From Synechocystis sp. PCC 6803 substr. PCC-P (GTDB taxonomy: Bacteria > Cyanobacteriota > Cyanobacteriia > Cyanobacteriales > Microcystaceae), in the NCBI RefSeq assembly GCF_000284455.1, contig NC_017039.1:3450001-3482000 (forward strand): a DNA stretch of 32,000 bases, given 5' to 3'. Of this stretch, positions 2,798-9,066 are shown piece after piece (the stretch's first letter is position 1; each line of letters begins with the position of its first letter). The notes beneath the pieces were generated by a model that saw nothing but the letters and a program-made list of their open reading frames with translations, did no database searches and had not been told where the DNA came from. Both the position numbers and the translations under genes were made by a program.

Positions 2798-2816
2798 AAT
2801 AATGATAATCATTATC
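2798..2816. promoter_or_regulatory. Fur box (AATAATGATAATCATTATC), 18/19 match to the classical GATAATGATAATCATTATC consensus
   Basis: Read directly from the sequence. It contains the perfect 17-bp palindrome ATGATAAT-C-ATTATCAT (2802-2818). It lies about 110 nt upstream of the porin ATG (2688), in the spacer after the preceding minus-strand gene. Confidence 0.6.
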
Positions 2817-2881
2817 ATAGCATGGGCTTTTCTGGAATTTTTTAGATAGATGGTTTCACCAAGCCGATTACTTCCTAATCC

Positions 2882-3598
2882 TTACTGGCCAAGCTCTAAC
2901 CACTCTTCCGCCCGTACATTAGCCACCAACGTAAACTGATCACCACCTAGGGGCTTAACCACATAGGCCATGCCCTGGGGATCGGGATAAATTCCAGTTG
3001 CCGCCTCAAATAGATCGTCATGGCCAACAACAACATTATTAGTTCCAGGGGCAGGAATTTCGGTTAAAAATGGCATTAACAACGCTTTCATTTGGGCAAT
3101 TTGTTCTGGGCTATAGTCTTCCGCTTTGGGAAAATTAAGGTCGCCATTTTTTTCGTATCGTCCAAAGGCTAAATCCGCTGTTTGCCAGGCTCGACAATAT
3201 TGACTGGAAAAAACTTTGTCGTAGGGAATGGCGTATTTTTTGAATGCTTCACCGATCGCCTTGGCCTGTTGCCAACCGACCTCGCTTAAAGTCCTTTGGG
3301 TGGCGCAGTTACCCATTTCCGCTGTGACTTGGTCAGCATAATCCTTTTCTGTTTGGCCATGGCGAATGTAAATGACATACCCTCCCTGACGTAATGCTTC
3401 TAGCAAATCTTTCTTATTTAACTTGTCCTGAAAATCACGGTTAGCCTGTTCTCCTGGGGTCATTTCTTGCGCCGCAACCTTGGCTAGCTCTAGGTTTAGA
3501 CCGCTAATTAAGCTGGGATTATTGGGGGAAAAGGAAACTTCCATGGATTGCACCCACAACATAACCCCAAATAATAGCAACCGGTTAGCCCATTTCAT
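2882..3598 (-). CDS. Secreted histidine phosphatase family protein (phosphoglycerate-mutase-like fold)
   Basis: Catalytic RHG motif in YVIYIRHGQTE and a second His in VVVGHDDLF. N-terminal signal-like segment MKWANRLLLFGVMLWVQS. The track start at 3604 is TTG. ATG 3598 is preceded by AAGGAG at 7-nt spacing. Confidence 0.75.
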   Translation of the reverse strand: MKWANRLLLFGVMLWVQSMEVSFSPNNPSLISGLNLELAKVAAQEMTPGEQANRDFQDKLNKKDLLEALRQGGYVIYIRHGQTEKDYADQVTAEMGNCATQRTLSEVGWQQAKAIGEAFKKYAIPYDKVFSSQYCRAWQTADLAFGRYEKNGDLNFPKAEDYSPEQIAQMKALLMPFLTEIPAPGTNNVVVGHDDLFEAATGIYPDPQGMAYVVKPLGGDQFTLVANVRAEEWLELGQ

Positions 3599-4102
3599 CA
3601 GCAAGCTCCTTAATAAAAATAATTTTCATTTAATCCCGGCAATTATCCTAGGGCTAAATAGGAGTTACTGTCAATAGACGAAAAAATGAACGGGTGAAAT
3701 GCCCCTAGCAACCGAAGGCTTCAGTCCGCACCTTTTGAAGATTGACCAACGGCGATCGGACAACTTCAGGCAGGCAGGGGGCATTATTTGAATATTGCAA
3801 ACATCGTCTTTTGCTCTATGGTTTTAATTTGCCCAGACCATGAAAAGCGAACTGGGGCAGATTGAAGAGGATTATAAAAAGAGAAAAAATTTGGCTCGTG
3901 GGGAAAATTCCATCCAAAGAAAGCCTCCAAAGTAGAGATCCCAGGCGGAAAAGCCGCTGTTGAGTGGAGGTCAATAAAACTTAATGAATTTTTTTAAAGC
4001 TAAAAGCCATTTTCCTCGCAAAACGTCCCCCCGTGCGTAAAATGGGGACTAAAGTTTTGTCACGTCCCTGACGAAATTCTTTAATAGGAGAACTCAATAC
4101 CA

Positions 4103-4576
4103 ATGGCTGAATCTAACCAAGTTGTACAAGCCTATAACGGCGATCCTTTTGTGGGGCATCTTTCCACCCCCATTTCCGACTCCGCTTTCACCCGCACTTT
4201 TATCGGCAATTTGCCCGCCTATCGCAAAGGCCTTTCCCCCATCCTCAGAGGTTTGGAAGTGGGCATGGCCCACGGTTACTTCTTGATTGGCCCCTGGACC
4301 CTGCTGGGCCCGCTGCGGGATTCTGAGTACCAGTACATTGGTGGTCTGATCGGAGCTTTGGCTTTGATCCTGGTGGCTACCGCTGCTCTTAGTAGCTATG
4401 GACTGGTTACCTTCCAAGGGGAACAGGGTTCCGGCGACACTCTGCAAACAGCCGATGGTTGGAGCCAATTTGCTGCTGGCTTTTTTGTGGGTGGCATGGG
4501 AGGTGCCTTTGTGGCTTACTTCCTGTTGGAAAACCTCAGCGTTGTGGATGGGATTTTCCGGGGTCTATTTAACTAA
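4103..4576 (+). CDS. psaL: Photosystem I subunit XI (PsaL)
   Basis: 157-aa product recognised as PsaL: AYNGDPFVGHLSTPISDSAFTRTFIGNLPAYRKGLSPILRGLEVGMAHGYFLIGPW plus C-terminal transmembrane helices. AGGAG lies upstream and psaI follows, as in cyanobacterial psaL-psaI operons. Confidence 0.95.
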   Translation: MAESNQVVQAYNGDPFVGHLSTPISDSAFTRTFIGNLPAYRKGLSPILRGLEVGMAHGYFLIGPWTLLGPLRDSEYQYIGGLIGALALILVATAALSSYGLVTFQGEQGSGDTLQTADGWSQFAAGFFVGGMGGAFVAYFLLENLSVVDGIFRGLFN

Positions 4577-4789: not shown

Positions 4790-4897
4790 GCTGGAAAGGT
4801 TTGAAGACTAATGGTCTTTTAATTGAAAATGTCTAACCATCTTTGGGTGGGTCAGGATTCCTCCGTTATGCGGGGGATTGGACATTTTGATTTGTTA

Positions 4898-4925
4898 CTC
4901 CGCCAGCGGGTGGGGTATTTTTTTT
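4898..4925 (+). terminator. Candidate intrinsic terminator of psaL-psaI
   Basis: Stem CTCCGCC / GGGTGGG (7 bp including two G-U pairs) with loop AGCG, followed by TA and a run of 8 T (4918-4925). It lies inside the TTG-extended N-terminus of the murG track ORF. This argues that murG starts at ATG 4974. Confidence 0.45.
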
Positions 4926-4973
4926 GTGGGCTTATCAAAGGCTTGTGTAGTTTTTAACGGATATTTGGGCAAG

Positions 4974-6041
4974 ATGACTGAACCGATTCGTTTACTAATT
5001 GCCGCCAGTGGCACGGGGGGGCATCTTTTTCCGGCTTTGGCCCTGGCCCAGCAGTTGCCGGACTATGAAATTATCTGGTTGGGGGTGCCCGATCGCCTGG
5101 AGACGACCTTGGTACCCCGGCAATATCCTTTGCAAACGATCCCGGTGGAAGGTTTCCAGGGACGGCCCAGCTTAAAAACAATCAAGATTGGCTGGAATTT
5201 ATTACGGTCAGTATTCACGGTTAGAAAACTGATTAAGAGCAAAAAAATTAATGCTGTGGCGACCACAGGGGGTTATATTGCCGCTCCGGCCATTGTGGCA
5301 GCTAAATTATGCAACATTCCGGTAATTTTCCACGAATCTAACTTTATTCCCGGTAAAGTAACCACTTGGTTGGGCCGTTGGTGCGACACAGTGGCGATCG
5401 GTTTCCGGGGCACAGCCAAATATCTGCCCAATTGTGCAACGGTTTGGATTAGCACCCCCGTGCGGGAGCAATTTCGTCAGCCCCAGTCTTTGGATTTGCC
5501 CATTCCCCCAAACAGAAGCTTAATTGTGGTGGCAGGAGGTTCTCAGGGAGCAGTGACAGTCAATCAACAAGTTCGTAGTTGTGTGCCTGCTTGGGTAAAT
5601 GCGGGGGCCTTTATTGTCCATTTGACCGGCAAGAACGATCCGGAAGCGGCCACCTTTAGCCATGACCATTATTTATCCCTGGAATTTTTCGATAATATGG
5701 CGGCCCTGTTGCAAAAGGCGGATTTAGCCATTAGCAGAGCCGGAGCGGGCACCCTAACCGAATTGGCTGTCACCCAGACCCCCTCCATTTTAATTCCCTA
5801 TCCCTTTGCGGCGGAAAATCATCAGATGTATAACGCCCAGGTGTTTGTTGATGCCGGGGCCGCCCTAATGTTTGCCCAAAAATCCCTGACGGCGGAACAG
5901 TTGGAACAAGCTGGGCTAGACCTGCTCCAGAGTCCAGAAAATTTGGCTACCATGGCCAAAGCTGCTGGCACATTGGCTGACCTCGATAGTGCAGAACAGT
6001 TAGCGGCGATCGTCCGGGCATCAGTGGAAAAATCCCGCTGA
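4974..6041 (+). CDS. murG: UDP-N-acetylglucosamine--N-acetylmuramyl-(pentapeptide) pyrophosphoryl-undecaprenol GlcNAc transferase (MurG)
   Basis: N-terminal G-loop LLIAASGTGGHLFPALALA and C-terminal AGAGTLTELA / PYPFAAENHQMYNA motifs of the GT28 MurG family. The track start 4878 is TTG with a non-homologous leader, so I used ATG 4974 (MTEPIRLLIAASG). Confidence 0.9.
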   Translation: MTEPIRLLIAASGTGGHLFPALALAQQLPDYEIIWLGVPDRLETTLVPRQYPLQTIPVEGFQGRPSLKTIKIGWNLLRSVFTVRKLIKSKKINAVATTGGYIAAPAIVAAKLCNIPVIFHESNFIPGKVTTWLGRWCDTVAIGFRGTAKYLPNCATVWISTPVREQFRQPQSLDLPIPPNRSLIVVAGGSQGAVTVNQQVRSCVPAWVNAGAFIVHLTGKNDPEAATFSHDHYLSLEFFDNMAALLQKADLAISRAGAGTLTELAVTQTPSILIPYPFAAENHQMYNAQVFVDAGAALMFAQKSLTAEQLEQAGLDLLQSPENLATMAKAAGTLADLDSAEQLAAIVRASVEKSR

Positions 6042-6424: not shown

Positions 6425-7252
6425 ATGACTACGACAGAATTAACGGCGGCCACCCTAACTCAACTTCAGCAAGAAATTAATCGGTTACAACGGGAAAATG
6501 ATGATCTCCACATTGCCTTGACCACGATCGCCGAACATGGGGACATGATCGAGTCATTGCTGAATGAAACCAATGTCAAGCTCAGAAGCGAAATCCTGGA
6601 ACGACAGCGGGCAGAGGCGAAGTTACAAAATATTCTCAGTTTAATTTCCCGGGAAAAGGAAGACCTAGAAATTATTGTGGAAACCATCATGCAACATGGG
6701 GACGTGGTGGATGCCCAATGGCGACAAAAACTAGGGGAAACCGCAGAGTTACTTAACCTCGATAGCCTCACCCAGGTTTCCAACCGCCGCCATTTTGACC
6801 TCCATCTGGCCCAACAATGGGAACGGGCCATGGATAGCCAAGAGGCGATCGCCCTGATTTTATGTGATATCGACCATTTCAAACAATTCAACGACTTCTA
6901 CGGCCACCTCAGTGGGGATGACTGTTTGCGGCGCATTGCCAAAACCCTCAGTGCCACCCTCCGCAACCCGTTTGATCTTTTTGCTCGCTACGGTGGTGAA
7001 GAATTTGGTGTAATTTTGCCCCAGGTGACCAGTGAAGCTGCCCAGCAGATTGCTAAACGGATGCAGGCCTCTCTGACAATGCTAGAAATTCCCCATCACC
7101 ATTCCCCCACTAGCGAATTCGTCACCATGTCCTTTGGCATCGGTCGCCTGTATCCCCAGCCGGGACAACTCCCCCTAGACCTAATTGCCCAAGCGGACGA
7201 AAATCTTTACAAGGCGAAACGCCAGGGCCGGAACTGCATTTTCGGCCATTGA
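6425..7252 (+). CDS. Diguanylate cyclase (GGDEF domain) with N-terminal coiled coil carrying two HGD-motif repeats
   Basis: GGDEF domain LTQVSNRRHFDLHL ... LCDIDHFKQFNDFYGHLSGDDCL ... ARYGGEEFGVILP ... ADENLYKAKRQGRN, with an intact GGEEF active site. The I-site position reads RNPFD rather than RxxD. Confidence 0.85.
   Translation: MTTTELTAATLTQLQQEINRLQRENDDLHIALTTIAEHGDMIESLLNETNVKLRSEILERQRAEAKLQNILSLISREKEDLEIIVETIMQHGDVVDAQWRQKLGETAELLNLDSLTQVSNRRHFDLHLAQQWERAMDSQEAIALILCDIDHFKQFNDFYGHLSGDDCLRRIAKTLSATLRNPFDLFARYGGEEFGVILPQVTSEAAQQIAKRMQASLTMLEIPHHHSPTSEFVTMSFGIGRLYPQPGQLPLDLIAQADENLYKAKRQGRNCIFGH
6845..6852. repeat. HIP1 octamer GCGATCGC (last copy before a 4.9-kb gap)
   Basis: Read directly from the sequence. 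Confidence 0.95.
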
Positions 7253-7294
7253 TTTTTCGAATAAACCAAGTGAGCTAGTCCCATAGACATAACC

Positions 7295-7894
7295 ATGAGC
7301 ACTGACCAAACCAACGTCAGACAATGGGGAGAGTTCCTCGATCCCATTCCCCCCAGCGACGAATTTCTGACCCTAAACTTTTCCCTCGACCGGGTAAATC
7401 GTTTACAACGCTGGCGCAACTATGGCCTGTCAGCAGACTTTTTGGGGGACTACTTTGCCACCTTTTTTCCCGGCAACGGAGCAGACGACGGCCTTAGTCA
7501 GCGGGACACCATCAAAGGCTCCGTCAGTTATATTGCCAACGAATTGTTGGAAAACGCCGTTAAATACAGCACCACCGACCATGATTGTCCCATCACCATT
7601 ACTCTCCATCTCTACGACCATAAATTAATTTTTGAGACCAGTAATATTTCTCCCCTGCCAACCACCATTGACTATGAGAATTTCATCAAAGTGCTATTAG
7701 AGGCAGATCCGCTGGAGCTATACATGGAACGACTAGAAAAATCCGCCCTGGAAGATTGCGAAGCGTCCCAGATCGGCTTGTTGACTATGATTAACGATTA
7801 CCAAGCTCAGTTTGGTTGGCGATTTGTCCCGGTTTCCGGTTCCGAGGATTTGATCAAAGTTACGGTGATGACTCACTTGGGTGTCGAAATTTGA
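7295..7894 (+). CDS. GHKL/HATPase_c-like protein (RsbW/SpoIIAB-like anti-sigma kinase fold, degenerate ATP-lid)
   Basis: N-box-like IANELLENAVKYS and G2-like ASQIGLLTMIND. The position where a DxGxG G1 box is expected reads ETSNISPLP. The gene starts 42 nt after the GGDEF gene. I believe RefSeq names a family after this locus (slr1658); I know of no biochemical function. Confidence 0.6.
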   Translation: MSTDQTNVRQWGEFLDPIPPSDEFLTLNFSLDRVNRLQRWRNYGLSADFLGDYFATFFPGNGADDGLSQRDTIKGSVSYIANELLENAVKYSTTDHDCPITITLHLYDHKLIFETSNISPLPTTIDYENFIKVLLEADPLELYMERLEKSALEDCEASQIGLLTMINDYQAQFGWRFVPVSGSEDLIKVTVMTHLGVEI

Positions 7895-7956
7895 GCAGTG
7901 GTAGCTAAGAAAAAATTATTCTCCCCAAATCCCTAATTTTATTGCGACCTATTCCC

Positions 7957-8298
7957 ATGGAAATAACCACTGAAGACTATCGGATTTACTTTGAAGAGGC
8001 CAACAAGACCCTTTACTTTCGGGGCTTTTTGCGGTTGGAAGGCATGAAGGAATATCAGCCCATTATGAACACCATGCTGGAGATTTTGTCTGATTGTAGT
8101 GAGCTGATCATTAACTTAGAGGGGTTAGAATTTCTCAATAGTTCCGGCATCAGCATGCTGTCTATGTTTGTGATGAAGGTGCGGGGTAAGGAAGACACCA
8201 GCCTAGTTTTTAAGGGTTCTAAAAACATTCTCTGGCAAATGAAATCCTTGAGAAACCTCCAACGACTGATGCCTGATTTAACCTTGGAATTCGTCTAA
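7957..8298 (+). CDS. STAS-like protein (anti-sigma-factor-antagonist fold)
   Basis: INLEGLEFLNSSGISMLSMFV matches the STAS pattern (L..v.fiDSSGl..L), with Ser at the phospho-acceptor position (codons 8140-8145). The track start 7942 is TTG, so I used ATG 7957. The gene starts 62 nt after the GHKL-like gene. Confidence 0.6.
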   Translation: MEITTEDYRIYFEEANKTLYFRGFLRLEGMKEYQPIMNTMLEILSDCSELIINLEGLEFLNSSGISMLSMFVMKVRGKEDTSLVFKGSKNILWQMKSLRNLQRLMPDLTLEFV

Positions 8299-8487: not shown

Positions 8488-9066
8488 ATGGCCCGCAGAC
8501 CCCCACCCCGTTACACTCCTCCTCCCCGTCCCAGCTATGATCGGGATTATGGGCCCCCGCCGGGAAAAGCCCCTGGTAAGTTCAGCCTGGGGGCCATCAA
8601 CTATGGCACGATCGCCTTATTAGCGGGAATTTTTGTTTTGGGCATTGGGGTAGGCATTGGTTTTAGTTCCACCGCTAGCTTTAGTCCGGAAAATGTGGCT
8701 TCCAGGGAAGTGATTGACCGCAGTGCCCCCAACGCTGAAGTGTGTGTACAGTTTGGCTCCAGCGCCATTGTCACCGATATGCGGGTGTTTGTGACCCTGA
8801 ATCCCTTTAATGTATTTGTCACCCAACCAGTGATGCAACCGGGCTGTGTGTTGCGCCGCAATAACTGGAGCATTTTAGAGCGGGAAAAATTGGTGGACAG
8901 CCGTCAGGTCAATGATTGCAAAAATCGGATGAATACCTTTGGTTTCACCGGGCCTCTGGAAGGTAATCCTCGCATTGATTGTATTTACCAAAATGAAGCG
9001 GCTGGGAATTTATTCACCAATCAACCGGGGGCAGTGGGGCCCAGGCCAGCTACGGATAAGTTTTAG
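8488..9066 (+). CDS. Conserved cyanobacterial membrane-anchored protein of unknown function (possibly DUF3172 family)
   Basis: Pro-rich N-terminus (RRPPPRYTPPPRPSYDRDYGPPPGKAPG), one transmembrane helix (GTIALLAGIFVLGIGVGIGF), then a Cys-containing soluble domain (VCVQFGSSAIVTDMRVFVTLNPFNVFVTQPVMQPGCVLRRNNW). The family assignment is from memory only. Confidence 0.6.
   Translation: MARRPPPRYTPPPRPSYDRDYGPPPGKAPGKFSLGAINYGTIALLAGIFVLGIGVGIGFSSTASFSPENVASREVIDRSAPNAEVCVQFGSSAIVTDMRVFVTLNPFNVFVTQPVMQPGCVLRRNNWSILEREKLVDSRQVNDCKNRMNTFGFTGPLEGNPRIDCIYQNEAAGNLFTNQPGAVGPRPATDKF

Follow-up and report, generated by a model that had tools for sequence, protein, structure and literature searches.

Three partner switches that act upon diguanylate cyclases have been published, SiaABCD, HsbR/HsbA/HsbD and BgrRSTUWV (PMC7278518, PMC7647112, PMC8457831). 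In the first, the kinase SiaB and the PP2C phosphatase SiaA set the phosphorylation of SiaC at T68, and unphosphorylated SiaC binds two conserved motifs of the SiaD stalk, whereby an inactive pentamer becomes an active dimer (PMC7278518, PMC8457831). In the HptB-HsbR-HsbA-HsbD pathway of Pseudomonas aeruginosa, the STAS antagonist HsbA controls the cyclase HsbD in a phosphorylation-dependent manner (PMC7647112). For Sinorhizobium meliloti, bgrRSTUWV is described as a partner switch controlling the diguanylate cyclase BgrR (PMC7647112, PMC8457831): the phosphorylation state of BgrV depends on BgrU and BgrW, and BgrR is in turn under the control of BgrV (PMC7647112, PMC8457831, PMC13438883). BgrW has been presented as the kinase partner of BgrU (PMC7647112) and BgrV as a repressor of BgrR (PMC13438883); the primary source is Baena et al. 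2019 (Environ Microbiol, pmid 30963697). We compared with these systems the genes slr1657, slr1658 and slr1659 of Synechocystis sp. PCC 6803, which lie within a stretch of 32,000 nucleotides (nt) of contig NC_017039.1 (positions 3,450,001 to 3,482,000), the whole of which is called the window below. On balance we favor the view that the three proteins are the Synechocystis copy of a Bgr/Sia-type partner switch whose output is a diguanylate cyclase and not a sigma factor. The initial annotation of this DNA, which knew of no experimental characterization of such a trio, is corrected on that point by the three published systems and by the disruption of slr1658 itself; it also missed that the genes usually belong to a four- or five-gene module with a sensor-linked PP2C.

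The gene trio and its families

The three genes lie on one strand, and the gaps of exactly 42 and 62 nt between them, as well as the ORF (open reading frame) coordinates, are those given in the initial annotation.

6425-7252, plus strand: slr1657, predicted diguanylate cyclase of 275 residues, repeat domain at the N-terminus followed by GGDEF
6452-6745, plus strand: N-terminal domain of Slr1657 (residues ~10-107), two tandem motif copies, proposed docking site
7295-7894, plus strand: slr1658, atypical GHKL (RsbW/SpoIIAB-like) protein of 199 residues, presumed serine kinase of Slr1659
7957-8298, plus strand: slr1659, STAS-fold switch protein of 113 residues, with Ser62 at the phospho-acceptor position

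The trio was identified as Slr1657, Slr1658 and Slr1659 because the second ORF bears the NCBIfam name "slr1658 family protein" and the third "slr1659 superfamily regulator". Slr1658 scored 207.1 bits (E 1.5e-61; cut-off 100) with the slr1658 superfamily (NF047703) and 230.3 bits (E 1.4e-68; cut-off 200) with the slr1658 family (NF052618, slr1658_cyano), which is named after Slr1658 itself; Slr1659 scored 143.4 bits (E 3e-42; cut-off 100) with the slr1659 superfamily (NF047705), so that each exceeded its cut-off. Pfam, proposed earlier as a check on the two small proteins, could not place them alone: Slr1658 reached 13.9 bits with HATPase_c against a gathering score of 26.4 (E 0.078, over the N-box region only), and Slr1659 reached 18.1 bits with STAS, below the cut-off of 22.6. 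With TIGR00377, Slr1659 scored 25.6 bits, below 53.45, and all 43 homologues tested matched this model weakly.

Slr1658, a GHKL protein with an altered nucleotide pocket

The alignment profile of Slr1658 found no match among PDB sequences even at E 10. An alignment-based AlphaFold2 (AF2) model, with a predicted local distance difference test score (pLDDT) of 87.5, was compared with Foldseek, and the best matches were UsfX (8ih8), SpoIIAB (1tid, 1th8, 1l0o) and RsbW (6m37), at E 8e-5 to 2e-3 and TM-scores of 0.5-0.62 (normalized to target length). Matches at a probability of 0.9 or above consisted of anti-sigma kinases, then of histidine-kinase catalytic and ATP-binding (CA) domains, and of nothing else. 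The model thus predicts a Bergerat (GHKL) fold of the anti-sigma-kinase type, and the likeness to RsbW and SpoIIAB drawn in the initial annotation is borne out.

The N-box, ANELLENAVKY, occupies residues 81-91 (N82, E83, E86, N87, K90). When Slr1658 was aligned by hhalign with the canonical CA domains of histidine kinases encoded at related loci, its NELLEN87AVK, invariant in 44 sequences, fell upon the histidine-kinase N-box, YQxFIQ upon the F-box, and SxxGLLT upon G2. The G2-like stretch SQIGLLT (residues 158-164; S158, G161, T164) has a single Gly vs the GxGL of the usual box; fused and rhizobial members of the family have the full G2, SGLGxLT. The G1 box, DxGxG, in which the Asp contacts adenine, is lacking: the Asp position is held by the invariant Asn117, without the glycines, within the local sequence ETSNISP. 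The N-box is therefore present and the G1 box absent, as first described. Asn is found at the G1 position throughout the family, and because the rhizobial W protein considered below shares it, the missing G1 box is a family trait and not local decay.

A reading of Slr1658 as a dead kinase was considered and down-weighted, given that the G1 Asn is family-wide and that a dedicated PP2C is conserved.

Slr1658 also has an N-terminal extension of ~70 residues (7295-7500, residues 1-68) that is not present in SpoIIAB or RsbW and that carries the family's best-conserved sequence, the invariant RWxNYGLSADFLGDYFxxFFPG. SiaB_fam_kinase was matched weakly by 23 of 44 Slr1658 homologues (best E 7.9e-5, 24.5 bits vs 85).

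Slr1659, a STAS-fold protein closest to SiaC

Against PDB sequences the alignment profile of Slr1659 gave marginal STAS matches only. Its AF2 model (pLDDT 93.6) was compared by Foldseek, and the best matches were SiaC of P. aeruginosa from the SiaC-SiaD and SiaB-SiaC complexes, namely 7e6g_F (TM-score 0.71) and 6kko_D (0.73; normalized to query length), followed by 4qtp, RsfB, RsbV and SpoIIAA, all TM-scores being 0.59-0.73. Slr1659 is therefore modeled as a STAS fold, closest to SiaC. The sequence FLNSSGISML begins at residue 59, and helix 62-75 of the model starts at S62; the first Ser of LNSSG (Ser62 in the 113-residue numbering) thus stands at the start of helix 2, in the position of SpoIIAA S58 and RsbV S56, which agrees with the STAS-like protein and acceptor Ser of the initial annotation. 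The motif LEFLNSSGISMLSM was invariant in 43 homologues, and LNSSG is invariant from cyanobacteria to rhizobia; it shares the unusual Asn before the acceptor residue with SiaC, whose phosphopeptide is LLYLN-T68-SSIK (PMC7647112), and parallels the LN-T68-SS of that protein. Ser62 is, from these alignments, the probable phospho-acceptor of Slr1659. The DUF1987 model, that is, the family of SiaC, gave no match to Slr1659, and the SiaC model was matched by 3 of the 43 homologues, at best with E 0.025.

Slr1657 and its EHGD repeats

Slr1657 matched Pfam GGDEF with E 1.7e-56 over residues 111-270, and its active-site motif GGEEF, noted as intact at the outset, begins at residue 190. With an intact GG(D/E)EF and the Pfam domain, it is predicted to be an active diguanylate cyclase. 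The product-inhibition site (I-site; 6962-6976, residues 180-184) reads RNPFD, an RxxxD, within RNPFD-LFAR-YGGEEF; Asn stands at the Arg position, and the RxxD expected five residues upstream of GGDEF is not found there. The family consensus, unlike Slr1657, retains RxxD...RYGGEEF, and the Synechocystis enzyme may escape feedback by cyclic di-GMP (c-di-GMP).

The N-terminus had been annotated as nothing but a coiled coil, which falls short: helix is predicted there, and a conserved two-repeat domain is present. Residues ~10-107 hold two copies of DLxIxLxTxxEHGDxIE, ~53 residues apart, each in predicted helical context and each with a Gly-bearing EHGD turn, and the two halves align with each other at E 9e-8. 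This domain matched no Pfam family. A word-indexed protein search with the 110-residue domain returned a single match, and phmmer was used instead; an exhaustive phmmer search over 1.84 billion representative proteins found 140 carriers. GGDEF was present in 71 of the 103 carriers long enough to judge, HisKA/HATPase_c in 16, of which 12 also have a receiver domain, and Guanylate_cyc, the domain of class III cyclases, in 10, usually after PAS. Some relatives of the EHGD domain have one copy of the repeat and others have three.

Gene order and gene fusions in other genomes

A scan of one genome per species gave at least 564 genomes with a relative of Slr1658. Synteny was counted over the best 80 loci of these, almost all cyanobacterial, 57 of which have full flanks (counts for the latter follow in brackets). 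A Slr1659 homologue lies directly 3' of the Slr1658 homologue in 77 of the 80 loci (55 of 57), at a median gap of 56 nt. A hidden Markov model (HMM) of the Slr1657 N-terminal domain found it at the N-terminus of a protein within 5 kb of the pair in 62 loci (45 of 57), and one specific PP2C/SpoIIE subfamily is encoded within 5 kb in 50 (38 of 57); all four components, which make up the four-part Sia-type gene set, occur together in 41 (33 of 57). The PP2C gene is upstream and on the same strand in 38 of its 50 loci, and the sensor part of this PP2C varies (HAMP, Cache, CHASE, PAS, periplasmic-binding domain or receiver domain). In many loci the gene just 3' of the Slr1659 homologue encodes an N-domain histidine kinase or an N-domain class III cyclase, and the typical cyanobacterial layout is sensor-PP2C, N-domain-GGDEF, Slr1658, Slr1659, N-domain-PAS-cyclase. 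When the remaining neighbors were clustered, the PP2C was the only other recurrent family (48 loci), and no sigma factor or DNA-binding protein recurred near the pair in the 80 loci, which fits the switch without a sigma factor that was proposed initially.

Synechocystis PCC 6803, PCC 6714, LKSZ1 and a fourth relative have the GGDEF-Slr1658-Slr1659 block with different surroundings in each, at 56-84% identity of the trio across the clade. The co-occurrence called for by the initial annotation is thus seen both in the adjacent pair and in the block kept by these four genomes, and chance would hardly produce such an arrangement. Compared with the usual module of four to five genes, one of them for a sensor-PP2C, the Synechocystis trio is reduced.

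Fusions point the same way. Single chains of the form N-domain-GGDEF-Slr1658-like were found as nine cluster representatives (P0246, P0268, P0287, P0288, P0302, P0318, P0350, P0360, P0368). One such fusion, on a contig that does not look cyanobacterial (L081, 6001-9382), is followed by a Slr1659 homologue (45% identity) and then by a SpoIIE phosphatase. In a metagenome-assembled genome (MAG) labelled Chloroflexaceae (L073, 75-5588, plus strand), an ORF of 1837 residues joins a PP2C of the module type (residues 1408-1626) directly to a Slr1658-like domain (1642-1831) and precedes a Slr1659 homologue; this recalls HsbR, which has PP2C and kinase domains in one chain. Fusions and synteny together link the cyclase physically to the switch, and what the linked proteins have in common is the repeat domain.

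Two paralogous modules of unlike layout were seen in a single MAG, JBBQKH01 (L013 and L069), one with GGDEF upstream and PAS-cyclase downstream, the other with PP2C upstream and GGDEF downstream.

Comparison with the rhizobial pSymB operon

A tblastn search of plasmids with Slr1658 gave 66 records, all of them rhizobial megaplasmids save one cyanobacterial Kovacikia plasmid. On Sinorhizobium pSymB the match lies inside a six-gene operon on one strand, whose genes encode, in order, a GGDEF-EAL protein, a 186-residue protein, a 392-residue STAS-like protein with a methyltransferase domain, a HAMP-PP2C, a 185-residue (W-like) protein and a 112-residue (V-like) protein. This layout agrees with that of bgrRSTUWV, and the gene heading it is presumably bgrR (SMb20447), the pSymB record carrying no locus tags. 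The proteins in the W and V positions belong to the same NCBIfam superfamilies as Slr1658 and Slr1659: the 185-residue protein scored 160.7 bits on the slr1658 superfamily model and the 112-residue protein 137.1 bits on that of slr1659, with a cut-off of 100 for each. Identity between Slr1658 and the rhizobial W is 25-28%. In the W protein the N-box reads NELxENAVK, G1 has Asn and G2 is complete, and the V protein carries LEFLNSSGI, so that N-box, G1 Asn, a G2-like box and LEFLNSSGI are common to pSymB and Synechocystis. The output is a GGDEF protein in the rhizobial system and would be one in Synechocystis; a HAMP-PP2C is encoded within the rhizobial operon, whereas the Synechocystis module has no adjacent PP2C. 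They differ also in that the rhizobial cyclase is a GGDEF-EAL protein with another N-terminus, in which EHGD repeats were sought and none found, and in that a further W/V-like pair, degenerate and associated with a methyltransferase, is encoded in the rhizobial operon.

This extra pair in S. meliloti pSymB (L084) appears as a second, degenerate copy of a Slr1658/Slr1659-type pair: the 186-residue Slr1658-like protein (2811-3371) has lost the N-box Asn, and the 392-residue protein (3368-4546) has an N-terminal Slr1659-like domain fused to a methyltransferase of the S-adenosylmethionine (SAM) type.

Comparison with Sia and the classical switches

SiaABCD resembles the module in its logic and in the gene set of most cyanobacteria, where a membrane-bound sensor-PP2C is combined with a kinase, a phosphoprotein of STAS type and a small cyclase that consists of a stalk and GGDEF. 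SiaC is the best fold match of Slr1659 and shares the acceptor motif LN(T/S)S with it; the two tandem SiaC-binding motifs of the SiaD stalk are paralleled by the two repeats of Slr1657; and, among named NCBIfam families, the cyanobacterial PP2C proteins come nearest to SiaA and Slr1658 comes nearest to SiaB. The PP2C proteins of the cyanobacterial modules scored 41-64 bits vs 700 on the SiaA model, which was nevertheless their best named match, and Slr1657 scored 144 bits vs 290 on the SiaD model, over the GGDEF domain only. The systems are unlike in that no sequence match reaches family thresholds, in that the DUF1987 model, to which SiaC belongs, does not match Slr1659, and in that the Slr1657 repeats are ~53 residues apart with an EHGD turn, vs the continuous stalk helix of SiaD; SiaB, moreover, is outside the top fold matches of Slr1658.

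The classical pairs SpoIIAB/SpoIIAA, RsbW/RsbV and, in Mycobacterium, UsfX/RsfB combine the same GHKL kinase fold with a STAS fold; Slr1658 keeps the N-box Glu and Asn of these kinases, and Slr1659 the Ser of their antagonists. Here, by contrast, the pair has no associated sigma factor, Slr1658 has Asn and no glycines in place of the G1 DxGxG and an extra N-terminal segment, and Slr1659 has NSSG rather than DS(S/T)G. The Hsb pathway differs from the module in that HsbA also acts on a FlgM/sigma-28 branch.

Proposed switch and alternatives

From the modeled folds, the family assignments, the motifs, the gene order and the fusions we infer the following scheme. Slr1658 would bind Slr1659 and phosphorylate the first Ser of its invariant LNSSG; ATP binding and Ser kinase activity of Slr1658 are suggested by the conservation of the PP2C, by the invariance of the Ser and by the role that has been published for BgrW. 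A sensor-linked PP2C/SpoIIE phosphatase, encoded beside the module in most cyanobacteria, would dephosphorylate Slr1659; in Synechocystis this phosphatase would be encoded elsewhere or have been lost. Unphosphorylated Slr1659 would then dock on the two EHGD repeats of the Slr1657 N-terminal domain, a step suggested by the SiaC/SiaD parallel, by co-occurrence and by the fusions, and docking would alter dimerization of the cyclase and thereby change c-di-GMP synthesis. The effect may be of either sign, since the precedents differ: SiaC activates SiaD, and BgrV is described as a repressor of BgrR.

In other cyanobacteria one switch probably drives two outputs, by way of the docking domain on a PAS-class III cyclase or on a histidine kinase. 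A wider idea, which we put forward tentatively and hold with less confidence than the scheme itself, is that the EHGD domain is a portable docking module by which one phospho-switch would govern several dimeric signalling enzymes together (a diguanylate cyclase, a PAS-class III cyclase and/or a histidine kinase) and so place c-di-GMP, cyclic AMP (cAMP) or cyclic GMP, and phosphorelay under one common input.

In a screen by limited proteolysis, Slr1658 was one of only ten Synechocystis proteins that cAMP affected (bioRxiv 10.1101/2022.03.15.483797), which hints that its altered GHKL pocket senses a nucleotide. The bolder addition suggested by this change is that the pocket with Asn for Asp responds to a cyclic nucleotide and so provides feedback; given the effect of cAMP on Slr1658 and the class III cyclases encoded in many modules, we treat nucleotide feedback as a lead and as nothing further.

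Several observations weigh against placing the trio in a Bgr/Sia-type switch. The PP2C is absent from the 32-kb window and from beside the trio in three related genomes, and with no adjacent PP2C in the Synechocystis clade the switch may therefore work differently there. Slr1658 is without the DxGxG of G1, and ATP binding by its family is unreported in the literature searched. Sequence similarity to SiaB and SiaC is weak, the best E values of 7.9e-5 and 0.025 being far below the cut-offs, and SiaB was not in the top 50 Foldseek matches of Slr1658. The equation of the pSymB operon with bgrRSTUWV is drawn from its architecture, with locus tags unconfirmed; and the rhizobial cyclase does not have the EHGD domain, so that the docking site cannot be transferred from there to Synechocystis. 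Lastly, the sole known phenotype of slr1658, that on pgr5 mRNA (see below), is transcriptional and not linked to c-di-GMP.

The strongest competitor, though we think it unlikely, has the classical topology: Slr1658 would hold the N-terminal domain of Slr1657 much as RsbW holds a sigma factor, Slr1659 would be the antagonist that releases it, and Slr1658 may be a pseudokinase, with a ligand or another kinase driving the switch. In its favor stand the Slr1658-like domains found in one chain with N-domain-GGDEF proteins, the lack of a G1 box, the invariant ~70-residue extension of Slr1658 and the cAMP-dependent proteolysis pattern. UsfX, the best fold match of Slr1658, reportedly does not phosphorylate its antagonists. 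There is also a precedent in Moorella, where MtT, an RsbT-like kinase, binds a diguanylate cyclase and attenuates it (MtT-MtG; PMC7647112). Nonetheless, in both Sia and Bgr it is the STAS-like protein that is described as acting on the cyclase; the conserved PP2C and the invariant Ser of Slr1659 point to a real phosphorylation cycle; and the rhizobial W protein shares the G1 Asn and has been presented as the kinase that partners BgrU.

Less probable still is a true anti-sigma or anti-activator system directed at a transcription factor encoded elsewhere, to which Slr1657 would be a mere neighbor or a side branch. Disruption of slr1658, as reported by Zer et al. 2018 and relayed in PMC7555055 and PMC6525291, raised pgr5 mRNA ~1000-fold under all conditions and impaired recovery from iron starvation; loss of an anti-activator would be expected to give such a rise, and PMC6525291 states that no details of the slr1658 signalling chain are known. 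The nearest folds of the two small proteins are anti-sigma kinases and antagonists, which would fit as well. What recurs in the 80 loci is nevertheless the PP2C and the N-domain enzymes and not a sigma factor or DNA-binding protein; fusions to GGDEF exist, the trio travels as a block, and the same superfamilies are found in a rhizobial operon headed by a GGDEF-EAL gene. That the trio is a decaying remnant, no longer a working switch after loss of the PP2C, seems very improbable: the missing PP2C and the deviation of the Slr1657 I-site from the family consensus would agree with it, but every invariant family residue is intact in Slr1658 and Slr1659, the trio has been kept at the identity given above across the clade, and the phenotype of slr1658 disruption, as relayed in the sources just cited, is strong.

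Surroundings of the trio

Upstream in the window are psaL (4103-4576) and murG (about 4971-6041); downstream are a DUF3172 gene (8488-9066), ruvX and ppx/gppA. The mechanically called murG ORF (4878-6041) begins at a TTG at 4878, and its glycosyltransferase-28 domains begin near an ATG at 4971; the longer start is probably spurious. The DUF3172 gene is 3' of the trio and on the same strand in PCC 6803, in PCC 6714 and in a third relative (8488-9066 of the window; L086 7062-7682; L088 7220-7825, for the three genomes together), and is not so placed in LKSZ1 or other cyanobacteria; its adjacency is probably lineage synteny and not part of the module. For slr1659, a start at the in-frame TTG of position 7942 would yield 118 residues; the ATG at 7957 is favored because most homologues have 113-115 residues.

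7226-7247, plus strand: terminator-like hairpin, GC-rich with a T-rich tail after it, overlapping the end of slr1657; significance doubtful

Such a hairpin could attenuate read-through from slr1657 into slr1658; terminator-like sites are, however, not commoner in the region than in shuffled sequence (4 observed vs 4.5 expected), and the scan of the region for promoters and terminators performed no better than on shuffled sequence. Rfam found no RNA families in the window. PADLOC gave no match, and the trio is therefore not a known defence system.

Significance

In the literature searched, the cyanobacterial branch of these switches, and the EHGD-repeat domain common to three classes of output enzyme, appear to be undescribed. 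If Slr1658 works with Slr1659 and Slr1657 in a Bgr/Sia-type switch, its unexplained pathway becomes testable, and c-di-GMP is predicted to be the missing link to the pgr5 phenotype. The occurrence of the repeat domain on GGDEF proteins, class III cyclases and histidine kinases suggests a general means by which partner switches attach to dimeric enzymes, and the Slr1658 family is a natural case in which to ask whether ATP can still be used by a GHKL pocket that lacks the Asp and glycines of G1.

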